In this document: in pieces, positions 18,890-55,516 of the stretch
How positions within the stretch are numbered: the stretch's first letter is position 1
Layout of the letters: each line of letters opens with the position of its first letter
NCBI GenBank assembly: GCA_947460255.1
Contig: CANHIS010000004.1
Coordinates: 14,609 to 78,608 of the forward strand
Origin: Bacteroidota bacterium
GTDB lineage: Bacteria > Bacteroidota > Bacteroidia > M30B66
DNA length: 64,000 nucleotides
Reading direction: 5' to 3'
The notes under the pieces: generated by a model
The model's database searches: none
What the model was told of the DNA's origin: nothing
Seen by the model: the letters and a program-made list of their open reading frames with translations, nothing else
Program-made: the position numbers and the translations under genes

Positions 18890-21800
18890 TTATTTAACAG
18901 CAGGCTTGTATCGCTTTGCGTACTCTGTGAATTCCTCCTTGCTGAGTTCTATATTTCCTTTTCCATCACCGAAATTGATGTAAGCCCATTTCGTTGGAGT
19001 TTGCACTGCAGGATCTAGGGTTTTCAGTGTCACGTTTTCGTCTTTCACGCCTGCTTTGTCCATTTCGGCGATCTTTTCCTTCACGCGTGTAGCTACAGAT
19101 TTCGACTCCTGACGTGCTTTTTCGGTTGCTTCGGCTTTGGCTTTGGCATCAGCATCTGCTTTGGCTTTGTCTTCACCTGCCTTAGCAATCGATTCTAAAC
19201 GAGCCTTTTCGGTGGCATCTGCCTTGGCTTTTGCATCTGCATCTGCTTTGGCTTTATCAGCCGCAGCTTTCGCAATGGCTTCCTGACGGGCTTTTTCCTC
19301 AGCTTCTCGTTTTGCCTTGTCGGCGGCTTCCTTGGCTACGCGATCAGCCTCAACTTTGGCAATGGTTTCTTGTCGGGCTTTTTCGGCTGCGTCGGCCTTG
19401 GCTTTCGCGTCTGCTTCAGCTTTAGCTTTGTCGGCAGCAGCTTTAGCGACTGCTTCTTGACGGGCTTTTTCAACTGACTCAGATTTCGCTTTGGCTTCAG
19501 CCTCGGCTTTTGCTTTTGCTGCCGCTTCGGCTTCCTTCCTTGCTTTTTCGTCGTAAGCCTTGCGTTCAGCCTCTTTGGCATCGGCTTCCATCTTTAAAAC
19601 CCTTGCTTGTTCGGCGGCAGCTTTGTCGATTCGTGCTTGTTCTTCAGCGGCTTTTCTTGCTTTCTCTGCTTCTGCTTTGGCTTTCGCATCTGCTTCAGCT
19701 TTAGCCTTAGCAGCAGCTTCTGCAGCAGCTTTTTCTTCTTCAAGTTTCTTTTGCAGTGCTGCTTCTTCAGCTTCTTTCTTAGCCTTGTCGGCAGCCGCTT
19801 TTTCTGCTATCGCTTTCGCTTCTGCTTCCGCCTTTGCCTTGGCTTCTGCCTCAGCTTTGGCTTTTTCAGCAGCAGCTTTTGCTATGGCTTCCTGACGAGC
19901 CTTTTCTTCAGCATCACGACGGGCTTTTTCTTCGGCTTCCGCCTTTGCTTTTTCAGCAGCAGCTTTAGCAACAGCTTCTAAACGCGCTTTTTCTTCGGCG
20001 TCACGGCGAGCTTTTTCTTCGGCTTCTTTTGCTAAGCGCTCTGCTTCTGCTTTTGCACGGGCCTCAGCAGCAGTTTTGGCTTCGGCTTCCACCTTTGCCC
20101 TTAATTCTGCATCAGCCTTTGCCTTTTCGGCGGCTGCTAGAGCTATTGCTTCCTGACGCGCCTTTTCATCAGCTTCACGTTTTGCCTTATCTGCAGCTTC
20201 TTTGGCGATACGATCAGCTTCTGCTTTGGCGATAGCTTCTTGACGGATTTTTTCTTCAGCATCACGCTTGGCTTTGTCGGCAGCCTCTTTGGCTAAACGA
20301 TCAGCTTCTGCTTTGGCAGCCGCTTCTTTACGTAAGCGTTCATCCTCATCCTTACGGGCTTTATCGGCAGCTTCTTTGGCTAAACGATCGGCTTCAGCTT
20401 TTGCGAGAGCTTCTTGACGGGCTTTTTCTTCGGCATCGCGCTTGGCTTTGTCGGCAGCTTCTTTCTCTGCTTGGGCTTTAGCTAATGCCTCAATACGAGC
20501 CTTTTCTTCGGCATCGCGACGTGCTTTTTCTTCAGCATCTGCCTTTGCTTTCTCTGCAGCAGCTTTGGCGACAGCTTCTTGTCGGGCTTTTTCTTCAGCA
20601 TCGCGACGGGCTTTCTCCTCAGCATCTGCCTTGGCTTTATCAGCGGCAGCTTTGGCGACAGCTTCTTGGCGTGCTTTTTCTTCAGCATCACGTTTGGCCT
20701 TATCCGCGGCTGCTTGGGCTAAACGATCGGCTTCAGCTTTGGCAAGTGCTTCTTGACGAGCCTTTTCGTCTGCTTCTTTTTTCGCTTTATCAGCAGCTTC
20801 TTTTTCCGCTTGAGCTTTTGCAAGCGCTTCTTGGCGAGCTTTTTCTTCTGCTTCACGACGGGCTTTCTCCTCAGCATCAGCCTTGGCTTTTTCAGCGGCA
20901 GCTTTGGCAACAGCCTCTTGTCGAGCTTTCTCTTCGGCTTCGCGTCGCGCCTTTTCTTCAGCATCTGCTTTAGCTTTCTCGGCTGCGGCTTTGGCGACAG
21001 CTTCCTGCCGCGCCTTCTCTTCAGCCTCCATTCGTGCCTTTTCAGCTGCTTCTTTGGCTAAACGATCCGTTTCAGCTTTGGCAAGTGCTTCCTGACGAGC
21101 CTTTTCATCGGCTTCACGTTTTGCTTTGTCGGCAGCTTCCTTTTCTGCCTGGGCCTTTGCAAGTGCTTCTTGACGAGCTTTCTCTTCAGCTTCACGACGG
21201 GCTTTCTCCTCAGCATCGGCCTTGGCTTTATCGGCAGCTACCTTTGCTAAGGATTCTTGGCGAGCCTTTTCATCAGCTTCGCGTTTTGCTTTATCGGCAG
21301 CTTCTTTGGCAATTCTTTCGGCTTCAGCTTTTGCTAATGCTTCTTGACGTGCTTTTTCTTCAGCATCTCGCTTGGCTTTGTCGGCCGCTTCTTGGGCAAT
21401 ACGGTCGGCTTCAGCTTTAGCCAATGCTTCAAGTCTTGCCTTTTCAATAGCTTCAGCTTTTGCTCGTTCAGCCGCATCACGCTCGGCTTGAGCTTTGGCA
21501 AATGCTTCTTGTCGTGCTTTTTCTTCTGCGTCGCGCTTTGCCTTTTCTTGAGCTTCTTTGGCCAATCTTTCAGCCTCGGCTTTTGCAATGGCTTCCTGAC
21601 GCGCCTTTTCTTCTGCGTCTCGCTTGGCTTTGTCGGCCGCTTCTTGCGCCAATCTATCAGCTTCTGCTTTTGCAAGTGCCTCTTTTCGAGCAAGATCTTC
21701 AGCTTCTTTCTTGGCCTTTTCGGCAGCTTCTTTGGCTAAGCGGTCGGCCTCTGCTTTGGCTTGCGCTTCTGCACGTGCTTTTGCATCTGCATCTTTTTTG

Positions 21801-22888
21801 GCTTTCTCTGCCGCTTCTTGCGCTAATCTATCAGCTTCGGCTTTTGCTTGATCCTCTGCACGCGCTTTTGCTTCTGCATCTTTTTTGGCTTTATCTGCCG
21901 CTTCTTGCGCTAATCTATCGGCTTCAGCTTTGGCTTTTGCATCTGCTTTGGCCTTTTCCTCAGCCTCTCTTTTTGCTTTATCTGCCGCTTCTTGTGCTAA
22001 GCGATCAGCCTCTGCTTTGGCTTTTGCATCTGCTTTGGATTTATCTTCAGCCTCCTTTTTGGCTTGCTCAGCCGCCAAACGAGCATCGCGTTCGGCCTTT
22101 TCTTGGGCTAATTTTGCTTCTAATGCTGCTCGGTCTTGTTCTGCTTTTGAAGCCAATGCAGCCTCACGTTCTACCCGCGCTTTTTCTTCTGCAGCTTTAC
22201 GCGCCTCTAACTCGGATTGAGCTTTGGCTGCTGCAAGTGCGTCGGCTTCTGCTTTGGCTTTGGCAATTTCGGCACGCTCTGCTTCAATTTGTGCTTGTCG
22301 AGCTGCTTCTTTGGCTGCTTCTTCGGCTTTACGTGTAGAATCAGCTTTTGCAGCTTGATCAGCTTCTTTGCGATTCGCAGCGCGTTGTTCAGCTTCAACA
22401 GCAGCAACGTATTCTTTCTTTTGTCGGCTTGTTGCTTTTTGAAAATTCTCTGAATAATCAAACGCTTCATTGTCCTGATCGAAGGCAATTTTGTATTTGA
22501 ACTCGAAATTGATGTCGGCAGTTTTCCTGTGAAGATTGATAACCCCTAATTCGTTAAGCTGAGCTACTTCTGTTCCAACTAAATCGGCTGGACAATACGT
22601 GCTAATTTCGATTTTTGTTGGAGCATGGCCTGGTTGTTCGAGGTAAGCTTCACATTGTTTGTTTACTCCAACGCGCATCTGGAATTTACCGGTGGCAACA
22701 TCAAAACGGAGGTACTCATTTTTTCCGCCACAAACTAGTTTGATCACAGCATCAGGACTTAAAGATCCGTCGGCGCCGCGAAGCTCTCCATTGAAAATGA
22801 GAAAATCTTTTCTTTCTGGCTGCGCTAGGGCAACACCTACTATTTGAAGGAAAAATAAATTGAATAGGAATATTCTGATTAGGTTCAT
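18890..22888 (-). CDS. Secreted protein with a very long A/E/K/R-rich helical repeat (TolA-like composition)
   Basis: Signal peptide MNLIRIF...ALA-Q, ~140-aa globular N-terminal region, ~1100 aa of AEEKARQEALAKAEADRLAKEAADKAKRD-type repeats and a short C-terminal domain. Confidence 0.8.
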   Translation of the reverse strand: MNLIRIFLFNLFFLQIVGVALAQPERKDFLIFNGELRGADGSLSPDAVIKLVCGGKNEYLRFDVATGKFQMRVGVNKQCEAYLEQPGHAPTKIEISTYCPADLVGTEVAQLNELGVINLHRKTADINFEFKYKIAFDQDNEAFDYSENFQKATSRQKKEYVAAVEAEQRAANRKEADQAAKADSTRKAEEAAKEAARQAQIEAERAEIAKAKAEADALAAAKAQSELEARKAAEEKARVEREAALASKAEQDRAALEAKLAQEKAERDARLAAEQAKKEAEDKSKADAKAKAEADRLAQEAADKAKREAEEKAKADAKAKAEADRLAQEAADKAKKDAEAKARAEDQAKAEADRLAQEAAEKAKKDADAKARAEAQAKAEADRLAKEAAEKAKKEAEDLARKEALAKAEADRLAQEAADKAKRDAEEKARQEAIAKAEAERLAKEAQEKAKRDAEEKARQEAFAKAQAERDAAERAKAEAIEKARLEALAKAEADRIAQEAADKAKRDAEEKARQEALAKAEAERIAKEAADKAKREADEKARQESLAKVAADKAKADAEEKARREAEEKARQEALAKAQAEKEAADKAKREADEKARQEALAKAETDRLAKEAAEKARMEAEEKARQEAVAKAAAEKAKADAEEKARREAEEKARQEAVAKAAAEKAKADAEEKARREAEEKARQEALAKAQAEKEAADKAKKEADEKARQEALAKAEADRLAQAAADKAKRDAEEKARQEAVAKAAADKAKADAEEKARRDAEEKARQEAVAKAAAEKAKADAEEKARRDAEEKARIEALAKAQAEKEAADKAKRDAEEKARQEALAKAEADRLAKEAADKARKDEDERLRKEAAAKAEADRLAKEAADKAKRDAEEKIRQEAIAKAEADRIAKEAADKAKREADEKARQEAIALAAAEKAKADAELRAKVEAEAKTAAEARAKAEAERLAKEAEEKARRDAEEKARLEAVAKAAAEKAKAEAEEKARRDAEEKARQEAIAKAAAEKAKAEAEAKAKAEAEAKAIAEKAAADKAKKEAEEAALQKKLEEEKAAAEAAAKAKAEADAKAKAEAEKARKAAEEQARIDKAAAEQARVLKMEADAKEAERKAYDEKARKEAEAAAKAKAEAEAKAKSESVEKARQEAVAKAAADKAKAEADAKAKADAAEKARQETIAKVEADRVAKEAADKAKREAEEKARQEAIAKAAADKAKADADAKAKADATEKARLESIAKAGEDKAKADADAKAKAEATEKARQESKSVATRVKEKIAEMDKAGVKDENVTLKTLDPAVQTPTKWAYINFGDGKGNIELSKEEFTEYAKRYKPAVK
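19080..22400 (-). repeat. Degenerate coding tandem repeat (~29-aa and shorter units)
   Basis: Recurrent EEKARQEA and KAEADRLA units in the translation; boundaries approximate. Confidence 0.85.
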
Positions 22889-23073
22889 TGCGGACAATAC
22901 GCTTACAAGCAGTTTTCAGGAATTTCAAGCAAATCTAACAAAACAGGCCGCATTTTCATTACAAGGCGAGGTGAAAGTAACAGAAGATTTGAACAATTTT
23001 TAAAGTGCCTGATGCGCAAAAGCATTCAACCACGAGGTGGATTATGGCCAAATGTTAAAAATGTTCATTTGCA

Positions 23074-34236: not shown

Positions 34237-36363
34237 TCACTGAGGCACACCCTTCATCGCCAAAGCAATCCGCTTGCGCTGAAGATCCACTTCCATCACT
34301 TTCACTTTTACATGTTGATGCAGTTTCACTACCTGCAGCGGGTCCGACACAAACTGATCTGCCAATTGTGAAATGTGCACCAAGCCATCTTGCTTCACAC
34401 CCACATCCACGAAAGCGCCAAATGCCGTGATGTTCGTAATGATGCCCGGAAGCACCATGCCCGGAATGAGGTCATCGGGTTTGCGCACATTGGGATCGAA
34501 CTCTAAGATCGTTGCGTTCTTCCGAGGATCACGCCCCGGTTTTTCCAATTCTGCAAGGATGTCGTTTAAAGTAGGCAGCCCAATTTCTTGACTCACATAT
34601 TTGTTCGGATCGATCAGCGACTTCAGATCTTTGCGACCAATCAAATCTTTCAAGGGAATGCCGGCATCTTTGGCCATTTTCTCCACCAAACCATACCGTT
34701 CGGGGTGCACCGCACTGTTATCGAGCGGATGTTGAGCTTCAGGAATCCTTAGAAATCCAGCACATTGCTCGTAGGTTTTCTTCCCTAAACGGGGAATATT
34801 GAACAGATCATTCCGGCTCGTGAATGCTCCAACTTGGTTGCGCTGTTCCACAATTTTAGCCGCTGTAGCAGTTGATAATCCAGAAACATAAGAAAGCAGG
34901 TGCACCGATGCTGTGTTGAGATTCACACCAACTTGATTCACGCAAGATCGCACCACATCGGCCAATTGGTCGTTCATGAGGTTCGCATCGATATCGTGCT
35001 GGTACTGCCCCACTCCAACTGCCGATGGCTCAATCTTCACCAATTCCGCCAGTGGATCTTGCAAACGTCTTCCGATGCTTACTGCACCACGCACGGTAAT
35101 GTCGTACTGTGGAAATTCTTCCCGCGCCGTTTTGGATGCCGAATAAATCGATGCGCCACTTTCCGACACTACAAATACTTTCACGTGTGCAGGAAGATGC
35201 ATCCTTGTAATTAGGTTTTCGGTTTCTCGTCCACCGGTTCCGTTCCCAATCGCAACGGCATCAATTTTATAGGTCTCAATCAGATGACTCAATTTTGCCA
35301 TCGCCTGCTTGTCTTGTTGTTGCGGCTGGTGCGGGTAGATTGTTTCGTTGTGCAACAGTTTCCCTTGTGCATCCAAGCAAACGAGCTTACAACCGGTTCT
35401 AAATCCTGGATCTATTCCCAGTATGCGTTTCTCTCCCAATGGAGCTGCCATGAGCAGTTGGCGCAAGTTGGCAGCAAAAATCCTTACTGCCGATTGCGCT
35501 GCTTTTTCTTCCAAGGTTTGCAACAACTCATTTTCCAACGATGGCACAATGAGGCGTTTGTAAGCATCACGACTTGCTTTCTTCACTTCTTGAGCGCAAT
35601 CGCCCTGATTTTTCAGGTACATCCGATCGATGTTTTGTAACGACCGTTCTTCATCCGGCTCTACCGAAATCCGCAAGAAACCTTCCTTGTGCCCACGCAT
35701 CACAGCCATAAAGCGGTGCGACGGCATTCTAGAAGCAGGTTCATGATAATCAAAATAATCGCGGTATTTCTGGGCTTCTTCTTCCTTGGTTTTCACGAGT
35801 TTCGATTGGAACTCTGCAAACTTCTCGAAGCGCATCCTGAGTGATTTCCGCAATTCAGGATTTTCGGCAATCCACTCTGCAATAATATCGCGCGCACCTT
35901 GCAATGCAGCTGCTGAATCGGCAACCTCCTTTTTCACAAACGATCCTGCCAGTTTCTGTGGATCCTGATGCCCTTGCGACATCAGCATTTTGGCAAGTGG
36001 CTCCAATCCAAGTTCACGCGCCATCGAAGCACGGGTCTTTTTCTTCGGCCGGTAAGGCAAATAGATGTCTTCCAGATCGGTGAGGTTTTGCGCTCCGCGG
36101 ATAGCTTGCTCCAGCGCACCAGTGAGCAGTTGCCGTTCTTGCATCGACTCCAAGATGGCCGATCGGCGTTCTTCGAGCTTGTCGATCCGAAGTTTTTCAT
36201 CGCGGATGAGTTGAATCTGCTCTTCATCGAGCATCCCAGTTCGTTCTTTCCGATACCGGGCAATGAAAGGAATGGTGTTTCCTTCGTCGAGCATGGCCAA
36301 TACGGCTCCCACTTGGTGACGGGCAATTCCGGAAATCCGGGAAATCGATTCAATTACATCCAT
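34237..36363 (-). CDS. tex: Tex family RNA-binding transcription accessory protein
   Basis: TIPFIARYRKE, GIDPGFRTGCK and GAVSIGRRLQDPLAELVKI motifs, C-terminal S1 domain; ATG at 36363 follows a TATATTTG box. Confidence 0.92.
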   Translation of the reverse strand: MDVIESISRISGIARHQVGAVLAMLDEGNTIPFIARYRKERTGMLDEEQIQLIRDEKLRIDKLEERRSAILESMQERQLLTGALEQAIRGAQNLTDLEDIYLPYRPKKKTRASMARELGLEPLAKMLMSQGHQDPQKLAGSFVKKEVADSAAALQGARDIIAEWIAENPELRKSLRMRFEKFAEFQSKLVKTKEEEAQKYRDYFDYHEPASRMPSHRFMAVMRGHKEGFLRISVEPDEERSLQNIDRMYLKNQGDCAQEVKKASRDAYKRLIVPSLENELLQTLEEKAAQSAVRIFAANLRQLLMAAPLGEKRILGIDPGFRTGCKLVCLDAQGKLLHNETIYPHQPQQQDKQAMAKLSHLIETYKIDAVAIGNGTGGRETENLITRMHLPAHVKVFVVSESGASIYSASKTAREEFPQYDITVRGAVSIGRRLQDPLAELVKIEPSAVGVGQYQHDIDANLMNDQLADVVRSCVNQVGVNLNTASVHLLSYVSGLSTATAAKIVEQRNQVGAFTSRNDLFNIPRLGKKTYEQCAGFLRIPEAQHPLDNSAVHPERYGLVEKMAKDAGIPLKDLIGRKDLKSLIDPNKYVSQEIGLPTLNDILAELEKPGRDPRKNATILEFDPNVRKPDDLIPGMVLPGIITNITAFGAFVDVGVKQDGLVHISQLADQFVSDPLQVVKLHQHVKVKVMEVDLQRKRIALAMKGVPQ

Positions 36364-36406
36364 GGGGCAAATATATTGATGATGGGGAAAGGAACACAGT
36401 GCCTTG

Positions 36407-36455
36407 AGTACTGAGTCTTTAGTCCTTAGTCCTAAGTCTTGAGTCCTAAGTCTCA
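36407..36455 (+). repeat. Heptamer tandem repeat (AGTCYTN-type, 7 units)
   Basis: agtactg agtcttt agtcctt agtccta agtcttg agtccta agtctca. Confidence 0.9.
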
Positions 36456-36500
36456 ATTTGCTGCGAAATCAATCACATCAAATCCCCACCTTGAACACTA

Positions 36501-36525
36501 GCAACCGCGAACTTTAGTCCGAGGA
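36501..36525 (+). repeat. REP/IS200-type hairpin copy 1
   Basis: gcaaccgcgaactttagtccgagga, related to copies at 39654, 39804 and 41731. Confidence 0.65.
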
Positions 36526-36547
36526 GTAGATGAATCGCGAGCATGAA

Positions 36548-36702
36548 TTACCTCTCTCCCTAGCCCTCTCTCCACGGGAGAAAGGGGATTGATCGCGAAT
36601 ATTCTGAGCATTTGATTTTAAGTGTGGTTTTCAGTTTTACCTTGATGTTTAGGTAAAGTACAAATCTGTTCCCTCTCCTGCGGAGAGGGCTAGGGAGTGG
36701 TG
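36548..36702 (+). mobile_element. REPIN/MITE-like element copy 1 with CCTCTCCCTAGCCCTCTCC-type inverted ends
   Basis: 36548-36657 matches 42147-42256 at 103 of 110 nt by hand alignment; the right end ggagagggctagggagtggtg is near-complementary to the left end. Confidence 0.75.
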
Positions 36703-36886
36703 ATTAAGAACTTATAGAACAATGATCCTCTCAGAAACCCTTCAGCACATTCGTTAAGGCAACACAAACGAGAATTGTTTTAACTTTGATTTGAAAATCG
36801 ATCCCAAACGTTAAGTTGGTTTATTTAAGTATAAGTTAAATGATCATTATTTTGCATTGTTCAAACGTAAATTCTAATTAATAAGG

Positions 36887-37984
36887 ATGAAATTAAAAGG
36901 ATATTCTCGAGTTGAAGTAGATGATTTCTCCAAGAGTAACGGCAATTCTTTTTCGTTTTTTCAGAATGATAAAATTTTGAAAACTCTATTTGCTTTTATA
37001 ATTGGTATGATTGCAAATAATGGCATTCAGGCTCAGGTGAATTTAGTGCCGAATGCATCTTTTGAGAATGTTAACTATTTTCCGTGTTTCTTTTGGGGTA
37101 GCAATTCAACTATAGAATTTGCTTCATCTTGGAATGCTACTCAGACATTACAATTTGTTTGTACTCCTGATTTGTTTTGCATCGATACCTGCGAAAATGA
37201 ACAGTATATTCCAGACAATCCCTTTGGCAATCAAATCCCAGAGTCAGGAAATTCCTATGTTGGTCTAGTTCTTTTTGCTAATTTTAGTGATGACGTATTT
37301 GGAATTGAGTCCATTTACACCAAACTAGATTCAATCTTATTACCAGAAAACAATTACGAATTATGTGCATATTTTAGCTTATCTGAAAATTGCTGCCTTA
37401 ATTCACGAAAGCTATCATTTGCTGTAACTCCAGACACTTTAACTGAAAGCTTATTTAATAGTCTGAATCCAAATGATATTTTTTACTTAGAAGGCTTAGA
37501 ACAATGTAATTATTCCGACTGGACTCAAATCTGTACTACGTTTTCTCCAACACAACCTGGTAATATTCTCACATTTAATGTCATCAATAATCAAGCTGCA
37601 TTGCTGTCTGATACTGTGTTGTATGATAATGGGATTTGTGAGCATCCCGCAGAAGTTATCTCAGTGTATTATTACATAGATGATGTTTCTTTAGTGAATA
37701 AAGGTAAGAATACTGGTGTACCGCAAAATGGGAGTAAGAATAGTTTGGCGGTTTATCCTAATCCATCAAATGGTCAATTCCTTATAAAGTTAACAAATGA
37801 AATTGTAGGTTTAAATTTGAGTGTTGTTGATGTTACAGGGAGAAATGTCTTTCAATTTAATTTTCAAGGAACATTGCAAGAAAGATCAATTAATTTATCT
37901 TACCTTTCAAACGGGGTGTATTATTTGAATTGCAGCTCAAACGGTCAATATATTGGCAGCTCGCCTATTGTAATTTTTAAGTAA
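36887..37984 (+). CDS. T9SS type A cargo protein with CBM-like beta-sandwich (QxNLVPNxSFE family)
   Basis: QVNLVPNASFE ... YYYIDDVSL; CTD VYPNPSNG...GVYYL. True start is probably the TTG of LKTLFAFII. Confidence 0.8.
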   Translation: MKLKGYSRVEVDDFSKSNGNSFSFFQNDKILKTLFAFIIGMIANNGIQAQVNLVPNASFENVNYFPCFFWGSNSTIEFASSWNATQTLQFVCTPDLFCIDTCENEQYIPDNPFGNQIPESGNSYVGLVLFANFSDDVFGIESIYTKLDSILLPENNYELCAYFSLSENCCLNSRKLSFAVTPDTLTESLFNSLNPNDIFYLEGLEQCNYSDWTQICTTFSPTQPGNILTFNVINNQAALLSDTVLYDNGICEHPAEVISVYYYIDDVSLVNKGKNTGVPQNGSKNSLAVYPNPSNGQFLIKLTNEIVGLNLSVVDVTGRNVFQFNFQGTLQERSINLSYLSNGVYYLNCSSNGQYIGSSPIVIFK

Positions 37985-39438
37985 TGATGAGATTTTTCAT
38001 GCCAGTTTTGATTGTTTTGAATTGTTTGATGATTAAAGCTCAGTCCATAACTACCTTTAATCGCACTTATTTAGATTCCTCAAATTGGTCAGCAAAAGTT
38101 GGAAATACAATAGAAATTGATAGTGTTTTTTATTGCTTGAGTTCAGGAAATGGATTAGTTTCTAATTCTAATTACATTATGTTCTCAGCAATTAATTCAA
38201 ACGGTGATGTTATAAATCGTAGGTTAGTTGGTCGTCCTTTTAATATTGAGGCTTATTCTGGGCGAATTGCTAAAGACGATAAGAATTTTATTTATGCTGA
38301 TATCGGTCAAAGACTTGTCGGTAATCCTGATAAATTCAATACAAATGTGGTTAAATTAACTTTAAGTTTTGATACAATTTGGAATCTTAAAAATAGTGAC
38401 AGCACTTTTCATAACTACAGTAGATCAATTGCAGTTTATGATTCTTTGGTTTATATTGTAGGTGCAAAACGATTGGATAGTGCAAATTCAATATTGCTAT
38501 CTGGATATATGATTATTGCTGACACTGCTGGTTTTCAGCATGGCTTTACAGAGTATAATTTTGATAATCATTCACAAGAATTATTAAACTTATCAATAGG
38601 AATGAATAATGACTTGTTTTTATGTGGTTCTGGTAAAGATACAATGTCAAACTTTTATGGGCTTTTGGTTAATACGGACCTTTCAGGTAATGTAAATTGG
38701 TTTCGGAGATACTATGAGATGCGCAATATTTTCGACATTCTTCCATTAAGTGATTCTTCATATTTACTAACCGGTGGAGTATTCAATGATGGTGAGTATA
38801 GAGGTATATTAATTAAAATAAATTCAGAAGGAGACGTGATTTGGCAACGTGAATTTCCATTTGGTGATGAATTGAGTTTGTATTCATCCATTCAAGTATT
38901 AGATGAAGGAATAGTAAGTATTGGGTTAACCACACTTAATTCTACAAATGGCAATGATGGATTTATACAAAGAATAAATTATGATGGTAATTTAGTTTGG
39001 CAACGTTACTTTAATGGTTCAGCTTCAGTAACTGATTATTTCACAGATATAATTGAAACTTCAGATGGCGGTATTCTGGCTTGCGGTGCTGCTGGAGATG
39101 CCAATGAGTCCGGAGGCCAAAACCTCTGGCTGGTAAAGCTTGATAACATGGGCTGTCTGGAGCCCGATTGCTGGGTAGGAGTGGAGCAAGCAGATGCCAA
39201 CACACTTGGGGTGGCTGTTTACCCTAACCCAGCCACCGATTGGCTGTATTTAAAGTACGACAGCACCCACAAAATCACCCTCGAAATCTTTAATCTCAGT
39301 GGCCAAAAGGTTCTTCAACACCAGCATATGGCACCCAAAGAAGGTATTGAAATTTCTCATCTTCCAGCAGGACTTTATTTGTTAAGGTTTGTTGATGAGT
39401 TGGGGAATGTAGCGACTGAGAAGTTGGTAGTGGAGTGA
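37984..39438 (+). CDS. T9SS type A cargo protein with beta-propeller-type repeats
   Basis: Signal peptide; repeated xDxxGxxxWxR motifs; WLVKLDNMGC; CTD VYPNPA...GLYLL...KLVVE. Confidence 0.82.
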   Translation: MMRFFMPVLIVLNCLMIKAQSITTFNRTYLDSSNWSAKVGNTIEIDSVFYCLSSGNGLVSNSNYIMFSAINSNGDVINRRLVGRPFNIEAYSGRIAKDDKNFIYADIGQRLVGNPDKFNTNVVKLTLSFDTIWNLKNSDSTFHNYSRSIAVYDSLVYIVGAKRLDSANSILLSGYMIIADTAGFQHGFTEYNFDNHSQELLNLSIGMNNDLFLCGSGKDTMSNFYGLLVNTDLSGNVNWFRRYYEMRNIFDILPLSDSSYLLTGGVFNDGEYRGILIKINSEGDVIWQREFPFGDELSLYSSIQVLDEGIVSIGLTTLNSTNGNDGFIQRINYDGNLVWQRYFNGSASVTDYFTDIIETSDGGILACGAAGDANESGGQNLWLVKLDNMGCLEPDCWVGVEQADANTLGVAVYPNPATDWLYLKYDSTHKITLEIFNLSGQKVLQHQHMAPKEGIEISHLPAGLYLLRFVDELGNVATEKLVVE

Positions 39439-39449
39439 TGCGCTTTGCG

Positions 39450-39631
39450 CGTAAAACGTGTTTAGTCTTTAGTACTTAGTCTTTAGTACTGAGTCTTTAG
39501 TACTGAGTCTTTAGTCTAGAGTACAACGTATTACGTACAAAGTATTTAGTCTGGAGTAGAAAGTGGAAAGTATAAAGTTGAAAGTAGAAAGGGGAAAGGG
39601 GAAAGGAGAAAGGAGAAAGTATAAAGGAAAT
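39450..39631 (+). repeat. In-phase heptamer ladder (~26 units)
   Basis: Unbroken 7-nt register from cgtaaaa/cgtgttt through agtcttt/agtactg, cgtacaa, agtagaa and aggggaa to aggaaat. Confidence 0.9.
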
Positions 39632-39700
39632 ACGATTCCCAATTAGCTTCCTCGCAGCCGCGGACTTTAAACTTTGGAAATAAGGTTAATTTGGAGGGAA
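39632..39700 (+). repeat. Conserved block with REP-type hairpin, copy 2
   Basis: acgattcccaattagcttcctcgcagccgcggacttt...tggaaataaggttaatt. Confidence 0.8.
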
Positions 39701-39704
39701 TGTG

Positions 39705-39850
39705 GGTACAACGTGTTTAGTCTTAAGTACTCAGTCTTTAGTAGAAAGTTGAAAGTAGAAAGGGGAAAGTAGAAAGGAATTGCAAGGCCCAATTGGCACC
39801 CTCGCATCCATGGACATTAGTCTGTGGAAATAAGGTTAATTGGGAGGAAT
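39705..39850 (+). repeat. Second ladder (11 heptamers) plus conserved block with hairpin copy 3
   Basis: ggtacaa cgtgttt agtctta ... aggaatt, then cccaattggcaccctcgcatccatggacattagtctgtggaaataaggttaatt. Confidence 0.8.
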
Positions 39851-40138
39851 ATGGGTGTAATGTGTTGGGTACAACGTATTGATTACAAAGTAAAATGATT
39901 ACAACGTAATACCTAAAGCAATTTGCTTTCAATAAAAATGATTCGATAAAATCTTAATTGCGGGCTAAATGTTTTAATACATGTTGCCTTAAATTAACCG
40001 GCAATATATACGAAACAGTCATTCAGTTGGCGAGAGTATTAGGTATTCCCAACTAAATAAAACACCCTACTATTGGAATAATTTTCATTTACGATATATA
40101 TTCTGTGGAGAAATTGCGTAAATTAGATATCGCAGATT

Positions 40139-40285
40139 ATGAAATTTGCGCCTTTGAAAATATTCGCATCTAATTTAGCTCTCATGCTATCAGCAACTTT
40201 GGCCAATGGCATGTATCTTTGTAAAGTGTTGATGCAAAACAACGCTCAAACACAGTTTGTGTGGAAGTTGCGCATAGAACAATAA
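40139..40285 (+). pseudogene. Remnant of a T9SS C-terminal sorting domain
   Basis: 48-aa ORF ending LANGMYLCKV...FVWKLRIEQ*, 4 nt before the next ATG. Confidence 0.6.
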
Positions 40286-40289
40286 ACCG

Positions 40290-41612
40290 ATGAAAAGATG
40301 GGTATGTATAATGTTAGTCTGCTTGTTTCACAGCAGCAATGCGCAAAATCTGTTGATTAACGGCGATTTTGAAGATGTGCGCTGCTTAGAATTGTTTGAG
40401 AATCCCCAAACTTACGATGCTCTTACTGCTGATAATTGGTTTAATTTAACACGACCCTATTCCACATGCGATGTATTTTCAGTTTGCAATACCATACCTT
40501 ACGCCTTAGAAAATGATTCCATGGTGTATTACACGCAATGGGGCGTTCCAGATAACTTTAAAGGTCATCGCTGGCCTCAGAATGGTGAAACGTACATGGG
40601 TTTTGGCTTTTGCCGAAACATGAATTTCGAAAACCCCAATTATTCGTATGAATATCCATCGGGAACACTAAGTGAGTCTTTAGAAAAAGATTCGCTTTAC
40701 TGTATTGACTTATTTACAGTATCCTTTTTTGGTGATACGGTACCAGCAATTCCAAATTCAGAAAACAAATACATTCATTTGGTTTCTCAATTTTTACAAG
40801 GATTCTTTTTAAATGAATTTCAATTTAGAGGCTCTAGAAAAATATTGGACGTACCCAATTACTTCAATCTATATGCTTCCGATAGTTCATTTTTAGACAG
40901 CAAGGAATGGACGCCCGTTCAAACCCCATATTTAGCAAACGGAGGCGAGCGTTACTTTACATTGGGCTTAACGATTCCCAATTCGGAAATGCAGCCTCAT
41001 GTTCAACTAATCACTAACTTTACGGAGGAAGAAAAACGTATTTGGGAAGAGATTAACTTTTTACCAACAGGTAGTTTTGCTATAGGCGGGTGGGTGTATT
41101 ACTTTGTTGATAATATCTCCATTACCCCAGTGCCTGCATTGAAAGCCAATGCCAATAAATCTGCGGTATTAAAAGGCGCTCCGCTTTGGTTAAGCACCGG
41201 CACTGCAGCCAGCAATTTGCAGTGGTACACTCAGGATGGTCCTGTGGGGCAAGGCGATAGTGTGTTGGTGTTTCCCACCAAAAGCCAGTATTATTACCTC
41301 CAAGGCCAACAATGCCGATACACACAATTCGACAGTGTTTGGGTAGAGGTGGAAGAGGTATTACCGGAACCCATTACCTTGAATGTATACCAGAATTTAA
41401 ACCAAGGCACCGTGCAGTTCGAGTATTTGGGCGATGTGAGGCCAACCTTGCAAGTTGCGGTGTACAACCTCGCTGGTCAACGCGTGCAAAGCTTCCAACT
41501 TACCGAATCATCCAGCGTTACTTTCAACAATCTCGCTGCTGGTATGTATTTAATCGATGCGCGCTTAGAAGGCATTCCGGTTAAAACGGCTAAGGTGGTG
41601 GTGGGGAGGTAG
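40290..41612 (+). CDS. T9SS type A cargo protein, distant paralog of 36887-37984
   Basis: Signal peptide; QNLLINGDFE ... YYFVDNISI; CTD VYNLAGQRV...LAAGMYLI...KVVV. Confidence 0.8.
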   Translation: MKRWVCIMLVCLFHSSNAQNLLINGDFEDVRCLELFENPQTYDALTADNWFNLTRPYSTCDVFSVCNTIPYALENDSMVYYTQWGVPDNFKGHRWPQNGETYMGFGFCRNMNFENPNYSYEYPSGTLSESLEKDSLYCIDLFTVSFFGDTVPAIPNSENKYIHLVSQFLQGFFLNEFQFRGSRKILDVPNYFNLYASDSSFLDSKEWTPVQTPYLANGGERYFTLGLTIPNSEMQPHVQLITNFTEEEKRIWEEINFLPTGSFAIGGWVYYFVDNISITPVPALKANANKSAVLKGAPLWLSTGTAASNLQWYTQDGPVGQGDSVLVFPTKSQYYYLQGQQCRYTQFDSVWVEVEEVLPEPITLNVYQNLNQGTVQFEYLGDVRPTLQVAVYNLAGQRVQSFQLTESSSVTFNNLAAGMYLIDARLEGIPVKTAKVVVGR

Positions 41613-41623
41613 GGTGTTTTTTA

Positions 41624-41756
41624 AGTACAACTTTTACCGTATAACCTATTAAATATAAAGTACAAAGGGAATACAAATTACGTTTCACTAAATACGAATT
41701 ACGCATTACGATTCCCAATTAGCATCTTCTCAGCCGTGGACTTTAGTCCTAGGAAA
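41624..41756 (+). repeat. Degenerate heptamer ladder plus conserved block with hairpin copy 4
   Basis: agtacaa ... acgaatt acgcatt acgattc ccaattagc ... cagccgtggactttagtcctaggaaa. Confidence 0.75.
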
Positions 41757-41829
41757 ATTATAGCATGAGAGATTTTTGGGTATGCCATATTTGCACCTGT
41801 TGTTATAAATGATAAAATCACCTAGCAGC

Positions 41830-41952
41830 TTTTGCGTATGGAAACGACAAAAAGATTATTCGTACGCAAATTCTGCGTATGGAAAACAAAAAAAGAAAAT
41901 CCATACGCATATTTTGCGTACGGAAACGACAAAAGTATTTTCCATACGCAAT
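41830..41952. repeat. Three tandem 41-bp palindromic units
   Basis: TGCGTAYGGAAA...TYCRTACGCA, with tgcgta starting at 41833, 41874 and 41915. Confidence 0.9.
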
Positions 41953-42119
41953 TTGGGTCGAGGGCTTTGATGTATTGGGTTTAAAGTATTACGTAAATGT
42001 ATTGAGTACAAAGTCGAAATGATTTACGAAGTACACCTTAAGAATCTCGATTAGATTCCCCGCAGGCGCATGGTCTCTATTCCATGGATACAAGGTTAAA
42101 ATGAAAAGTTCGCGATATG

Positions 42120-42300
42120 GTTCCCTCTCCTGTGGAGAGGTGCTGTTTACCTCTCTCCCTAACCCTCTCTCCGCATGAGAGAGGGGATTGATCGCGAATA
42201 CTCTGAGCATCTGATTTTAAGTGTGGTTTTCAGTTTTACCTTGATGTTTAGGTAAACCTCTCCCTGGCCCTCTCCTCTGGAGAGGGCTAGGGAGAGGTGC
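42120..42300 (+). mobile_element. REPIN/MITE-like element copy 2, preceded by an extra partial right end
   Basis: 42147-42256 is a direct repeat of 36548-36657; ends ggagagggctagggagaggtg; 42120-42142 resembles 36668-36690. Confidence 0.75.
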
Positions 42301-42388
42301 TGTTCTATCCCTTGCGAAACAGATTGATGATGTAGAAATGAAAGCTCGAGAAACAATTCCCGATATTTGACCCAAAGATCTATTTCCT

Positions 42389-43654
42389 ATGCGTCATTTG
42401 TTGCTCTTCGTATATATGTTTCCGCTGTGCTTGTTAGCTGGGGAAACCACTCTTCAGTACAACGACCACGTGTATCGACCAACCATTAAAACCGTGATGC
42501 TGCAATTGAAAGGTGTTGAAGGCTCACCAGCAGCATTGGAACTAAACTCTGGAGATCAATTTCATTTGCAGTTCGACGATCTAGATGTTACGCAGCGACA
42601 ATTGTACTACAGTTTCGAGCATTGCAATGCCGATTGGACGCCTTCTGGAATCATGCCCACACGTGCCATCCAAGGTTTACAACAAGATTTAGTGCAGGAT
42701 TTCCGATATTCCTTCAACACCTTCCAACAATACCTCCATTTTGATCTTTTCTTCCCGAACGACAACATGAAGTTCCTCCTCACGGGGAATTACCTCCTGA
42801 AAGTGTATGAAGACAACGACCAAAACAACCTGCTTCTTACCCGACGGTTGATGGTGTACAGCAAAAAAGCGAAATTAAGTCCGCGGGTGAAACGCCCTGC
42901 ACTCATGGAATTGCGCGACACACACCAAGAGATTGATGTACTGGCGGATATTTCTCAGATGCAGGTGATCAACGCAGCGTCATCAATGCAACTGGTTATT
43001 CTGCAAAATCAACGGTGGGACAATGCTCTACGGCTGAAGCCATTTGGAATCAATCAAGCACAATTGAATTATGATTACGACGACGGATCGAATTGTTTCC
43101 CTGGTCTGAATGAGTTCCGCTGGGCGGATATTCGCAGTTTGAGGATGAATTCGGACCGTGTGCGGCGTATCAATCGCGACTCTACACCCATTCAAGTTTT
43201 GATGCTCAATGATCCATTGCGGACTTTTTCCGAATATCAATTGTTGCCAGAATCAAATGGAAGGTTTTTTATCAGAAACATGGAAGGCTCTGAACCAGAG
43301 CTAGATGGAGACTACGCATGGGTCGAATTTCGACTTCCCTATGAAACTCCTTTCAAGGATCGTAACCTTTATTTAATCGGATCGTTCAGCGATTGGCAAT
43401 TAAAAGACGAGTTTAAGTTGCAGTTCAAACACGCTTCTAAGTATTATGCAGCAAGGATCTTACTCAAGCAAGGAATATATAACTACTTGTACGCTTTAGG
43501 GGATCCTAAAACGGGTTCTGCCGACTGCAAACTGATGGAAGGAAGCCATTTTATGGCAGAGAACGATTATACAGTTCTCATGTACCACAGGGCTTACACA
43601 AACGATTTCGATGAATTGATAGGCTACCAAAGGTTAAATACTGCCGGTAACTAA
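42389..43654 (+). CDS. DUF5103 protein (T9SS plug family)
   Basis: FDDL...Y..EHCNADW.PS, YSFNT...Y.H, QN.RWDN, NEFR..D, LKQG.YNYLY and EN.Y.VL.Y motifs. Confidence 0.82.
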   Translation: MRHLLLFVYMFPLCLLAGETTLQYNDHVYRPTIKTVMLQLKGVEGSPAALELNSGDQFHLQFDDLDVTQRQLYYSFEHCNADWTPSGIMPTRAIQGLQQDLVQDFRYSFNTFQQYLHFDLFFPNDNMKFLLTGNYLLKVYEDNDQNNLLLTRRLMVYSKKAKLSPRVKRPALMELRDTHQEIDVLADISQMQVINAASSMQLVILQNQRWDNALRLKPFGINQAQLNYDYDDGSNCFPGLNEFRWADIRSLRMNSDRVRRINRDSTPIQVLMLNDPLRTFSEYQLLPESNGRFFIRNMEGSEPELDGDYAWVEFRLPYETPFKDRNLYLIGSFSDWQLKDEFKLQFKHASKYYAARILLKQGIYNYLYALGDPKTGSADCKLMEGSHFMAENDYTVLMYHRAYTNDFDELIGYQRLNTAGN

Positions 43655-53574: not shown

Positions 53575-54018
53575 TTATTGTAAATGAAAAACGATTGGTA
53601 GCGTATAATTTACGTTCACATATACTCCACCTTGAGAGCCTGGTTTCCATTTGCCATTCGTGAGCTTGATTACGCGAATGGCTTCTCTGTTCAACTCTTC
53701 TCCTCCCGGCACTCCGCGTATTACTCTAATATCTTCTAATGCACCAGTGCTTGAAACTATGAAGCCTAAATACACTTTTCCCTGAATTTCATTGTCGATC
53801 GCATTTTGGGGATATACCATTGTTTTTGAAATAAAATTCATCAATGCAGCTTGTCCACCTTCGTATTCAGGCATCACTTCAGCAATTGTTTGAACAGTCT
53901 TGGGCTTGTCTACAGGCTCTATCACAGGAGGAGGAAGCTCCATCAAGTCAGGATCCACTTGTGCTGACAAGGAAAATGAAGAGGCAAAGAAAAAAAGCAG
54001 TACTTGGAATATTTTCAT
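53575..54018 (-). CDS. TonB C-terminal domain protein
   Basis: Signal peptide, PPP linker, MPEYEGG...YP..A....IQGKV...W.PG.Q.G..V.V...LPI.F. Confidence 0.88.
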   Translation of the reverse strand: MKIFQVLLFFFASSFSLSAQVDPDLMELPPPVIEPVDKPKTVQTIAEVMPEYEGGQAALMNFISKTMVYPQNAIDNEIQGKVYLGFIVSSTGALEDIRVIRGVPGGEELNREAIRVIKLTNGKWKPGSQGGVYVNVNYTLPIVFHLQ

Positions 54019-54026
54019 GGTTGAGA

Positions 54027-54470
54027 TTATCGAAGGAGAAATTTAATAGGCAAACTCAAATTAACACTCACAGGCTTACCATTTTGTCTTCCTGGCTTCC
54101 ACTTTCCTTTTGTGAGTTTCAGTACACGAATGGCTTCTGCATTTAAATCAGATCCTCCAGGTACACTTTTCAAGACTTTTATGTCGGAAAGACTTCCATC
54201 CGAACGAACCACATAAGAAAGATAAATAGTGCCTTGGATTTGATTTTCCGAAGCATTTGGCGGATAAACCATGTTTTTCGAGATAAAACTTAGTAAGGCT
54301 TCATTTCCTCCTTCAAATTCAGGCATTTGCTCAACAACGGTAAATACAGGTTCTGGCTCTGGCATTTTTTGCTCCACAGGAGGAATTGGAGGCGATTGAT
54401 CAAGTTCCTCCTGTGCTGACAATGAAAGTGAAGCGGCAATGCAAAAAGGAAATAGAAGAAGTTTTTTCAT
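54027..54470 (-). CDS. TonB C-terminal domain protein
   Basis: VEQMPEFEGG...YP...WKPGRQNGKPVSV. Confidence 0.88.
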   Translation of the reverse strand: MKKLLLFPFCIAASLSLSAQEELDQSPPIPPVEQKMPEPEPVFTVVEQMPEFEGGNEALLSFISKNMVYPPNASENQIQGTIYLSYVVRSDGSLSDIKVLKSVPGGSDLNAEAIRVLKLTKGKWKPGRQNGKPVSVNLSLPIKFLLR

Positions 54471-54494
54471 CGTTGAAGAAAAGAGATAAAATAA

Positions 54495-54950
54495 TTATTG
54501 AAGCTTAAATCTTATCGGAATATTCATCCGAACATTAACAGGTTTTCCATTTTGCATGCCCGGCTTCCATTTGCCATTAGTCAATTTGACCACGCGCAAA
54601 GCCTCTTTGTCGAGGTCAGGAGCTCCGATTACTCCGCGAAGTAATTTGATATTGTTAATTGTACCGTCTTTTAATACCAAATACTGAACATATACTGTTC
54701 CTTCGATATTTGCTTCAGCAGCAGTTTCTGGATAACGGATGTTCTTTGCAATAAAACTTCTCAAACCTACCTCTCCACCTTCAAATTCGGGCATCTGTTC
54801 CGGATCAATCAAAATTACATCCTCAACGGTTTCAATTGGAGGAGGAGGCAAAAGAGGATCAATCATTCGCTGTGTATAACTGCTAATCGAGATAAGTTGC
54901 ATACAAGCAAAGGACAAGAGGTATTTCATGCGAATCATTTTGAATATCAA
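54495..54950 (-). CDS. TonB C-terminal domain protein
   Basis: EQMPEFEGG...IRYP...WKPGMQNGKPVNV; likely start is the ATG at 54929. Confidence 0.88.
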   Translation of the reverse strand: MIFKMIRMKYLLSFACMQLISISSYTQRMIDPLLPPPPIETVEDVILIDPEQMPEFEGGEVGLRSFIAKNIRYPETAAEANIEGTVYVQYLVLKDGTINNIKLLRGVIGAPDLDKEALRVVKLTNGKWKPGMQNGKPVNVRMNIPIRFKLQ

Positions 54951-54955
54951 CTCAT

Positions 54956-55516
54956 TTAGTCTTTCAATACGAACCTTACGGGCAGAGTATAGTACACATC
55001 AACCTTTTTACCGTTTTGCTCACCAGGAGTCCAGTCGCCTGCGGTAAGTTTTACTACATCCAAAGCAGCTATTTTCATCGATGGGTGCATTGATCTAAGC
55101 ACTTCAAAATTGGTGAGTTGCCCATCGGCTCTCACGACAAATTTTACATATGTATTTCCCTGAACATTTGCTTCGATCGCTTCTTTGGGATAAACCAAGT
55201 GGTCCTGTATGAACTTCTTCAATGCTTCTGTACCGCCTTTGAATTCGGGCATCTTTTCTACAATGGTGAACACAGGATCCGAAGGCGCTTCCTCTACGGC
55301 CTCCATGGCCTCCACTGGCGCCGCAATACTTGGATGGTCAGGCGTGCCTTCTGGTGAATTCTCCACTTCAATTACTTGGAACTGAAGAGGCTTTTCGGTT
55401 GATGATTTGGTTGCAGACTTATCCGTTTTATTCACTTGCGAAATCGATTGATTTGCAGATAAGAGAAGAAGAGTAATGAGCATTAGACCTAAATTCATAT
55501 GCATATTTTTCCACAA
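54956..55516 (-). CDS. TonB C-terminal domain protein
   Basis: VEKMPEFKGG...YP...WTPGEQNGKKV.V.YTLPVRF. Confidence 0.88.
   Translation of the reverse strand: MWKNMHMNLGLMLITLLLLSANQSISQVNKTDKSATKSSTEKPLQFQVIEVENSPEGTPDHPSIAAPVEAMEAVEEAPSDPVFTIVEKMPEFKGGTEALKKFIQDHLVYPKEAIEANVQGNTYVKFVVRADGQLTNFEVLRSMHPSMKIAALDVVKLTAGDWTPGEQNGKKVDVYYTLPVRFVLKD

Follow-up and report, generated by a model that had tools for sequence, protein, structure and literature searches.

The window examined here, a stretch of 64,000 nucleotides from a Bacteroidota genome, contains a run of three co-oriented type IX secretion system (T9SS) cargo genes between tex and a divergent T9SS plug gene. The genes are interspersed with copies of a repeat module, which consists of a ladder of 7-nt units followed by a hairpin. 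Are these genes cassettes in a capture system? A preliminary description had proposed an integron-like system that captures or shuffles genes for surface proteins. The ladder/hairpin modules would be structured single-strand sites closing the cargo cassettes, and a HUH enzyme, a DUF559 protein or RecA would act on them in trans. We consider a different answer likely. The interval would be a lineage-specific intergenic hot spot, in which an accessory segment of cargo genes lies among three unrelated repeat families that occur genome-wide, with no capture machine.

The assembly that contains the window (G000) is a metagenome-derived draft of 4.13 Mb in 246 contigs with a GC content of 41.5%, a Flavobacteriales-like metagenome-assembled genome (MAG). 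It was compared with 30 relatives, one genome per species, so that comparisons are at the species level; the class sample comprises 31 genomes. The p-values given below are indicative only, because related sequences are not independent.

The tex-plug interval and its accessory segment

The content of the interval differs among relatives. In G007, G008, G010 and G013, tex and plug are divergent neighbours with a gap of 68-175 bp (boundaries from tblastn). In the closest relative, G001 (plug 95% and tex 99% identical), the spacer is 662 bp. It holds module 1 of the window, three copies of a ~155-bp element that resembles a miniature inverted-repeat transposable element (MITE), and the right flank, and it has no cargo genes. 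When G001 is aligned to the window, 36702-42119 remains as sequence specific to G000, and the ends of this segment fall within MITE-like copies and not within ladder/hairpin modules. G005 (plug 94% identical) has three other genes upstream of plug, for proteins of 1509, 563 and 481 aa, of which the 481-aa protein shares 48% identity with the product of the second cargo gene (ctd2). Beyond these genes there is a ladder in decayed form, along with other hairpin repeats and more of the ~155-bp elements. With a protein query, tex was not found in G005 (98% complete), and G006 has no tex in the 7 kb upstream of plug. Variable content with junctions in the modules had been the expectation of the preliminary description. 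Among these species-level relatives the content does vary, but the junctions are in the MITE-like copies. The divergent tex/plug region would thus be a hot spot, which in G000 would also hold an accessory segment of ~5.4 kb with the three cargo genes.

The MITE-like element accounts for a 110-bp direct repeat that had been reported to span the array. The repeat is present (36548-36657 and 42147-42256, 110 nt, 94% identity), but it is part of the ~155-bp element, whose two copies are 88% identical over 155 nt. The element is non-coding, has inverted ends of ~25-31 nt and lies in tandem or nested clusters. Copies are found on at least 10 other contigs (C5, C7, C12, C17, C38, C48, C49 and C61, for example), and an nhmmer search of the genome gave 29 matches on 11 contigs. 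It would be the third family in the pile-up, beside the ladders and the hairpins. The presence or absence of the cargo segment would best be explained if the flanking copies recombined in the ordinary way, or if the segment was inserted into a cluster of them. A shorter repeat encloses the whole interval. A 26-nt stretch next to tex recurs beside plug in G000, G001 and G005 and is single-copy in outgroups; the plug-side copies of G001 and G005 are 96% identical to window 36368-36393. This direct duplication of the original tex-proximal spacer may be the mark of a founding insertion or duplication.

A second array of genes with the T9SS C-terminal domain (CTD), followed by the same modules, is present on contig C110. 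Its DNA is 84% identical to the window over the last ~500 nt of ctd2 (in two C110 genes), 88% over modules 2 and 3, and 75% from module 4 through module 5. The junction of ctd1 and ctd2 also has a counterpart there (72%). The gene ctd2 is itself a mosaic: up to ~38945 it has ~31% GC and is unique, and from ~39000, where the similarity to C110 starts, it has 48% GC. The third cargo gene, ctd3, has no DNA paralogue in the genome. Modules 2 and 3, which stand back to back and had been taken for an empty slot, are a 150-bp tandem duplicate (73% identical). The same pair is found on C110. It is not an empty slot. The cassette-like look therefore results in part from segmental duplication of a unit made of CTD end and modules. 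The local ~150-bp unit would have been copied by tandem duplication, and also by segmental duplication along with the conserved 3' CTD-coding end of the cargo family.

The paralogy could also be read as exchange. The conserved 3' end, CTD part and module together, would then be a homology anchor, and homologous recombination between this locus and C110 would swap or convert the AT-rich 5' parts without site-specific machinery. The mosaic of ctd2 with its similar downstream modules, the ctd1/ctd2 junction and the ctd2-like gene at the same place in G005 are consistent with such exchange. However, duplication followed by divergence of the central domain yields the same pattern, ctd3 is without a paralogue, and there is a single paralogous pair among the seven CTD genes that carry ladders (see below). 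We regard exchange at such an anchor as possible but doubtful, and prefer an accessory segment lying among unrelated repeats.

Five modules were counted in the window. They are built of period-7 ladders, which in three modules lead on to the motif CCCAATTRGC (at 39638, 39788 and 41714, as had been described), and of a palindrome resembling CCGYGGACTTTAGTCC with the tail GGAAATAAGGTTAAT. The four modules first described were at the places given for them, whereas the fifth and a ladder remnant (39856-39915) had been missed. The ladder arrays have periods of 7, 14 and 21, and in module 2 units of type 1 (AGTCTTT/AGTACTG) are followed by units of type 2 (AGTAGAA/AGGGGAA).

This layout bears directly on an integron-like system. 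The genes are co-oriented and the gene blocks do end in modules, as such a system would have it. But no module separates ctd1 from ctd2, where stop and start overlap, so that the sites are not one per gene, and the ladder proper of module 2 begins 25 nt past the ctd2 stop instead of about 12. Long spacers stand ahead of ctd1 (430 bp) and ctd3 (850 bp), where promoterless cassettes would be compact. The absence of a local recombinase, remarked on earlier, was borne out: none of the 37 window open reading frames (ORFs) scanned against Pfam has a recombinase, integrase or transposase domain. The two DUF559 matches are both within large ORFs on other contigs. The palindromes are present as described, but only the hairpin of module 3 (39801-39833; -5.3 kcal/mol, z -4.0) folds better than shuffles. 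The remaining four have energies of -1.4 to -3.4 kcal/mol, inside the shuffle range or nearly so, and are decayed; for comparison, two copies of the same hairpin beside a transposase gene on contig C18 reach -6.1 and -10.3 kcal/mol.

The features of the interval are collected in Table 1. The claim of three co-oriented T9SS cargo genes between tex and plug stands, with matches above the cut-offs to TIGR04183, the T9SS type A sorting domain, for the cargo genes and to NF052315 for plug. The cargo genes had further been called AT-rich, which holds for ctd1 and the 5' two-thirds of ctd2 (29-35% GC against 41.5% for the genome) and not for the 3' part of ctd2. A short ORF upstream of ctd3 had been described as a CTD fragment. 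It has no match in Pfam and none with the genome-specific CTD profile; its weak blastp matches (E 0.76-10) are mostly to the extreme C-termini of CTD proteins, which is suggestive of a CTD remnant but leaves this unproven. The true start of tex is the ATG at 36363 and not the longest-ORF start at 36456, as the N-terminus aligns with relatives from residue 1. No Rfam family was found at gathering thresholds in the whole window. Promoter and terminator sites predicted in 36300-42450 were no commoner than in shuffles, in a scan whose coverage does not extend to Bacteroidota-type promoters.

Table 1. Genes and repeats of the tex-plug interval, in window coordinates. REP, repetitive extragenic palindromic.
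Feature	Position	Strand	Composition	Remarks
tex	34237-36363	-	Pfam Tex_YqgF, Tex_N, HHH, S1	Left flank of the putative hot spot
26-nt repeat pair	36368-36393 and 42317-42342	+	81% identical	Encloses entire pile of repeats and genes
Module 1	36407-36525	+	Heptad ladder 36407-36455, then decayed REP hairpin 36501-36524	Also in G001
MITE-like copy A	36545-36702	+	~155 bp, terminal inverted repeats	Left boundary of G000-specific segment
ctd1, T9SS cargo gene	36887-37984	+	365 aa	Por_Secre_tail 8.1e-13; TIGR04183 37.1 bits (cut-off 23)
ctd2, T9SS cargo gene	37984-39438	+	484 aa	TIGR04183 49.8 bits (cut-off 23)
Module 2	39461-39705	+	Ladder 39464-39630; CCCAATTAGC 39638-39647; decayed REP 39653-39677; tail GGAAATAAGGTTAAT	
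Module 3	39706-39855	+	REP 39803-39827	Tandem duplicate of 3' 150 bp of module 2
Decayed ladder remnant	39856-39915	+	Period-7 signal 39870-39910	
48-codon ORF	40139-40286	+		Possible CTD remnant; weak blastp only
ctd3, T9SS cargo gene	40290-41612	+	440 aa	TIGR04183 29.7 bits (cut-off 23); Pfam match under cut-off
Module 4	41624-41775	+	Decayed ladder; CCCAATTAGC 41714-41723; decayed REP 41729-41753	
41-bp tandem units x3	41830-41954	+	Each unit an inverted repeat (TTGCGTATGGA...TCCATACGCAA)	Separate dispersed repeat family
Module 5	41965-42115	+	Decayed ladder, CTCGATTAGA, decayed REP 42061-42087, tail AAGGTTAA	
Partial MITE end and MITE-like copy B	42120-42140 and 42144-42300	+		Right boundary of G000-specific segment
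T9SS plug gene	42389-43654	+	NF052315 365 bits (cut-off 100)	Right flank of the putative hot spot

The 41-bp units of Table 1 are also found elsewhere in the genome (C110:5266-5616, C64:17384-17580, C4:1233-1280 and C17:7817-7860), where they accompany modules. At the matching position G005 has an analogous array built of a different hairpin. Outside the interval, the window contains an ORF at 18890-22897 (-) of 1335 aa and no Pfam family, with in-frame tandem repeats at 19110-22023 (periods of 87, 252, 261 and 339 nt), and at 53575-55516 (-) four small genes in tandem, each with a TonB C-terminal domain.

The hairpin family and a candidate transposase

The hairpins of the modules belong to a REP family that is dispersed over the genome. 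Its consensus is CGCAG-CCnnGGACT-TT/TC-AGTCCnnGG, and at the unpaired 5' foot G000 has GCAG, whereas G013 often has GTAG. The core GGACTnnAGTC gives 116 strand-hits in G000, or ~58 sites, with conserved CC..GG arms and GCAG foot. A 24-nt pattern, GCAGCCNNGGACTNNAGTCCNNGG, searched with at most one mismatch gives 59 matches and its reversed control none. An nhmmer profile of the family has 117 matches at E<=1; at E<=0.01, 72 of 80 are intergenic and they are spread over many contigs. Copies often form opposite-strand pairs, as at loci on C2, C18, C21 and C54.

A trans-acting HUH enzyme or REP-associated tyrosine transposase (RAYT) had been guessed at, and a gene of this kind flanked by the same hairpins had been proposed as a check. 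Such a gene was found. There are three Y1_Tnp genes in the genome, one of which (C18:48461-48829, 123 aa) encodes the HUH motif NHIHLL and the motif YIENQ and has inverted pairs of the REP hairpin on both sides. It is single-copy, and the next-best match in the genome is 25% identical. Its orthologue in G005 (79%) and a relative in G013 (37%) are likewise set among hairpins of the same family. The REP family itself is patchy: among the 30 relatives, G001 has 68 copies, G005 63 and G013 56, and the other 27 genomes have 0-1. The C18 gene with its flanking hairpin pairs has the arrangement called a REPtron. The closest solved structures to the enzyme are the TnpA proteins of ISDra2 and IS608. 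In its sequence the enzyme is IS200-type, and by analogy we take it to be RAYT-like in its working. As in RAYT/REP systems, this transposase would have dispersed the hairpins, with their 5' G[C/T]AG foot, in trans on single-stranded DNA. An enzyme that is apparently specific for the hairpin thus exists elsewhere in the genome, which an integron-like system would also call for.

The other two Y1 genes have palindromes of their own. The gene at C6:15856-16500 has a separate family with GGCCTAAAGGCC-type copies downstream, and a CACGCAGTGACGG...CCGTCACTGCGTG hairpin stands behind the gene at C24:29101-29600. Together with the C18 gene, these would be three REPtron-like systems in one genome.

Heptamer ladders at stop codons

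The ladders are also a genome-wide feature. G000 has 42 arrays of at least four AGTNNNN heptads, and three shuffles have 0-1 each. The phase is fixed. When arrays of at least five units were counted for all 64 trinucleotides, AGT gave 20, its complement ACT 17 and the next best 8. The units in G000 are AGTCTTT, AGTACTG, AGTCCTT, AGTCTTG and AGTAGAA, and this type of ladder offers stop codons in all three frames. None of the 42 arrays lies inside a gene of the longest-ORF gene set. A gene was called a ladder host if it is co-oriented with a ladder that starts from 25 nt before to 70 nt after the end of its stop codon. There are 23 such hosts: 13 of the 42 arrays overlap the stop codon of the host, and a further 10 are 4-68 nt past it. 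In 10 of the 13 overlapping ladders the stop is a TAG formed by a T and the first AG of the ladder. Upstream of the ladders we found no conserved insertion target beyond the T that completes TAG or TGA. We suggest that the AGT-phased ladders are a class of long simple-sequence repeats, which would begin on the stop codon of a co-oriented gene or only a few bases away from it.

Orthologues of two hosts carry different 3' ends. In four outgroups the thiolase gene ends in TTT TAA and is followed by a spacer of ~22 nt; in G000 and G001 it ends in TAG with a ladder beginning at that codon, and G005 has a REP there. In lepA, an AGTCTTG-type ladder lies on the stop codon in G000 and G005. G008 and G007 have a ladder of AGTAGAA/AGTTGAA type 4-6 nt past a TGA, and four other genomes are without a ladder. 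These alignments date the gain of ladders at both genes. Downstream of lepA there is also a conserved GC-rich element of ~90 nt (…GGGCTTTCCACTGCAATCCCTGGCGC…; ~660-750 of G000 C27:23700-25200), which gives many short matches in 8 of the 10 genus genomes searched and occurs upstream of the C24 transposase as well. This element may be a further repeat or else a structured RNA.

Of the 31 genomes in the class sample, 20 have AGT-phased ladders, and some of these lack this REP. The distant relative G027 has 33 ladders, 10 of which stand right at the stop (-10 to +8 nt) of an open frame that is 200 codons long or longer, and its heptads, AGTCTCA and AGTTGCG, are not rich in stop codons. Other AGT-phased units are AGTCGGA in G022, AGTCCCA/AGTTACA in G024, AGTGAAA/AGTTGAA in G016 and AGTATTA in G029. 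Ladders on opposite strands that face each other or converge were seen at several places in G000 (C48:25925-26000, C39:8138-8199, C49:12938-13033, C143:842-1057 and C20:30451-30633). Some of them stand one behind each of two convergent genes and together form long imperfect inverted repeats.

Ladders and REPs are paired. A REP is present in 13 of the 29 intergenic regions with a ladder, against 44 of 3701 overall (odds ratio 95), and 19 ladders have a REP no more than 200 nt away, in 16 cases downstream on the same strand. Because this pairing recurs across the genome, the module does exist as a unit, but as one of the whole genome and not of this array. The majority of ladder hosts (16 of 23) are not T9SS cargo genes. 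They include lepA, exodeoxyribonuclease III (xth), thiolase, an ABC transporter, two response regulators and an MFS transporter. The cassette-like look of the interval would thus arise because ladders and REPs sit just behind genes as a genome-wide rule.

These results leave little room for an integron-like system. In its favour are, apart from the layout of the gene blocks and the C18 enzyme, the enrichment of cargo genes at ladders and REPs (see below) and the different content of the interval in G000, G001 and G005. But there is no integrase, the sites are not one per gene, the hairpins are mostly decayed, the same modules stand behind housekeeping genes, and the variable segment has its junctions in another repeat. 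The model therefore fails its defining tests and is largely refuted; we consider it very improbable. Had secreted-protein genes been captured in an integron-like way, the machine behind it would have been of a new kind; the evidence does not support such a system.

An accessory segment among unrelated repeat families does not explain everything, and several observations weigh against it. Cargo genes are more frequent at the modules than expected. The 3' end of a CTD gene faces 11 of 29 intergenic regions with a ladder (odds ratio 10.8, p 2e-7) and 10 of 44 with a REP (odds ratio 5.1, p 1e-4); the overall figure is 208 of 3701. CTD genes are 7 of the 23 ladder hosts and 6.1% of all genes (p 3e-4). 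Among genes followed by a spacer of 100 nt or more they make up ~11-12%, and with this background p is 0.015. Among these seven hosts there is a single detectable DNA paralogue pair, ctd2 and a C110 gene (88%). The enrichment of cargo genes among ladder hosts is thus real but moderate, and is only partly explained, in part by the paralogy with C110. The module enrichment at cargo 3' ends that had been predicted is therefore present in a weak form, although genes of every class are hosts.

A second group of such observations concerns the repeats themselves. The account gives no reason for the order of ladder and REP, and neutral slippage does not account for the precise start of the ladders on the stop codon. 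In 12 of the 13 stop-overlapping ladders the stop is in the first heptad, whereas frame alone would give about one third (a rough estimate). G001 (93% complete) holds its 68 REPs, yet no close orthologue of the C18 transposase was found in it. The C18 protein exceeds the cut-off of the IS200/IS605 model NF033573 (62.4 bits against 55) but not that of the REP-associated transposase model NF047646 (31.7 bits against 80). The data basis has limits of its own. Repeats may be under-assembled in a draft of 246 contigs. The gene set is crude and was made for this analysis from longest ORFs, 3455 in all, which take up 91.6% of the genome, and the CTD genes come from a custom profile built for this genome, which gave 211 genes; a Pfam search listed 150 matches from 235 candidates.

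Could the ladder and REP instead be a selected 3'-end module? It would serve as stop back-up, or in ribosome release, mRNA 3'-end protection or termination, and would be favoured behind cargo genes, which have an exact C-terminal sorting signal. The position of the ladders on or near stops in G000 and G027, the stops in all three frames in G000, the consistent ladder-then-REP order on one strand and the enrichment of cargo genes agree with this. So do parts of the literature, in which REPs are mostly downstream of genes and able to supply TAG stops (PMC3733652) and TAACTGA heptamers overlap stop codons (PMC4679880). On the other hand, ladders are gained or lost at the same gene between close relatives and so are dispensable. 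The heptads of G027 are not rich in stops, 19 of the 42 ladders in G000 lack a co-oriented host whose stop is within 70 nt (among them the ladder of module 1, which stands in a divergent promoter region), and terminator-like sites in the interval are no richer than in shuffles. We think a selected function of this kind unlikely.

A further possibility is that the ladders are distinct mobile or templated elements that land precisely on stop codons, changing for instance TAA to TAG plus ladder and leaving the C-terminus intact, and that they are the preferred landing pad or the co-travelling partner of the Y1-mobilised hairpins. This, too, we judge improbable. If it were true, the AGT register across the class and, after rotation or reverse complementing, in published heptamers of cyanobacteria and Beggiatoaceae would point to one shared machinery or binding protein, and the enrichment of cargo genes would reflect selection that protects the exact C-terminal sorting signal, or a role in the reshuffling of surface proteins. 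We continue to favour an accessory segment in a hot spot where ladders, hairpins and MITE-like elements have accumulated.

Comparison with known systems

The hairpin family shares much with REP/REPIN-RAYT systems. Its unit is a short palindrome outside genes, with G[T/C]AG as the unpaired 5' foot, and is present in tens of dispersed copies that are often inverted doublets. A single-copy Y1/HUH gene is flanked by its own hairpins, the distribution among relatives is patchy, and there are several enzyme/hairpin pairs per genome. All these features are described in the REP/RAYT literature (PMC3733652, PMC6006769). The enzyme described here differs in having a Y...Q motif and in matching the IS200 model and not the RAYT model. 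The host differs as well: the REP is found in a Flavobacteriales-like MAG and is regularly preceded by a heptamer ladder. The list of GTAG repeats in PMC3733652 gives Proteobacteria, Cyanobacteria, Chloroflexi and the PVC group, and not Bacteroidetes, and the Bacteroidetes-dominated RAYT subclass 2.6 is characterized in the relevant section of PMC6006769 as flanked by atypical structures. A clear REPtron in a Flavobacteriales-like genome, with an enzyme that is IS200-type by sequence, bears on the origin of REP systems from insertion sequences.

Cyanobacterial short tandemly repeated repetitive (STRR) sequences have the heptamer units CCCCAGT, TTGGTCA and CAACAGT. The units of G000 match none of these, and they do not match TAACTGA. 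Arrays of TAACTGA are reported from Beggiatoaceae, cyanobacteria and five Bacteroidetes, and some overlap the stop of the upstream gene (MacGregor 2015, PMC4679880). According to the citing passages of PMC4679880 and PMC4692102, 7-nt repeats are over-represented in bacteria and have been ascribed to polymerase slippage (Mrazek 2007). The ladders resemble the STRR and TAACTGA repeats in being intergenic tandem arrays of 7-nt units in mixed assemblages, with stops in all three frames and some overlap with stop codons. In both cases relatives have shorter, repeat-free spacers and contigs break within arrays (PMC4679880, where this is described). The differences are in the units (here AGTCTTT, AGTACTG, AGTCCTT and AGTAGAA, with an invariant AGT phase), in the tight association with a REP family, and in position. 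Ladders here are mostly aligned on the upstream stop, whereas the Beggiatoaceae arrays, as presented in PMC4679880, lie just before start codons. When rotated or reverse-complemented, the published units TAACTGA and GGGGA[CT]T would read AGTTATC and AGTCCCC, which suggests that some published units have the same AGT phase. Our literature searches returned no description of AGT-phased ladders coupled to REPs, which is not proof that none exists. With the order of stop codon, ladder and REP on one strand, gains that can be dated and many sequenced relatives, the nature and spread of such heptamers become testable.

The interval is similar to an integron cassette array in that co-oriented genes are split by structured repeats and the content is variable between relatives. 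It differs in the lack of an integrase and of an attI site, in repeats that are not one per gene and whose hairpins are decayed, in the presence of the same repeats behind housekeeping genes, and in junctions of the variable segment that lie in another repeat family. For annotation this calls for some caution, as gene arrays partitioned by repeats can result from small repeats that accumulate behind genes in variable regions. The repeat family at these junctions is itself of a familiar kind. Like MITEs, the ~155-bp element is non-coding, has terminal inverted repeats of ~25-30 nt, forms tandem or nested clusters and is present at more than 10 loci.

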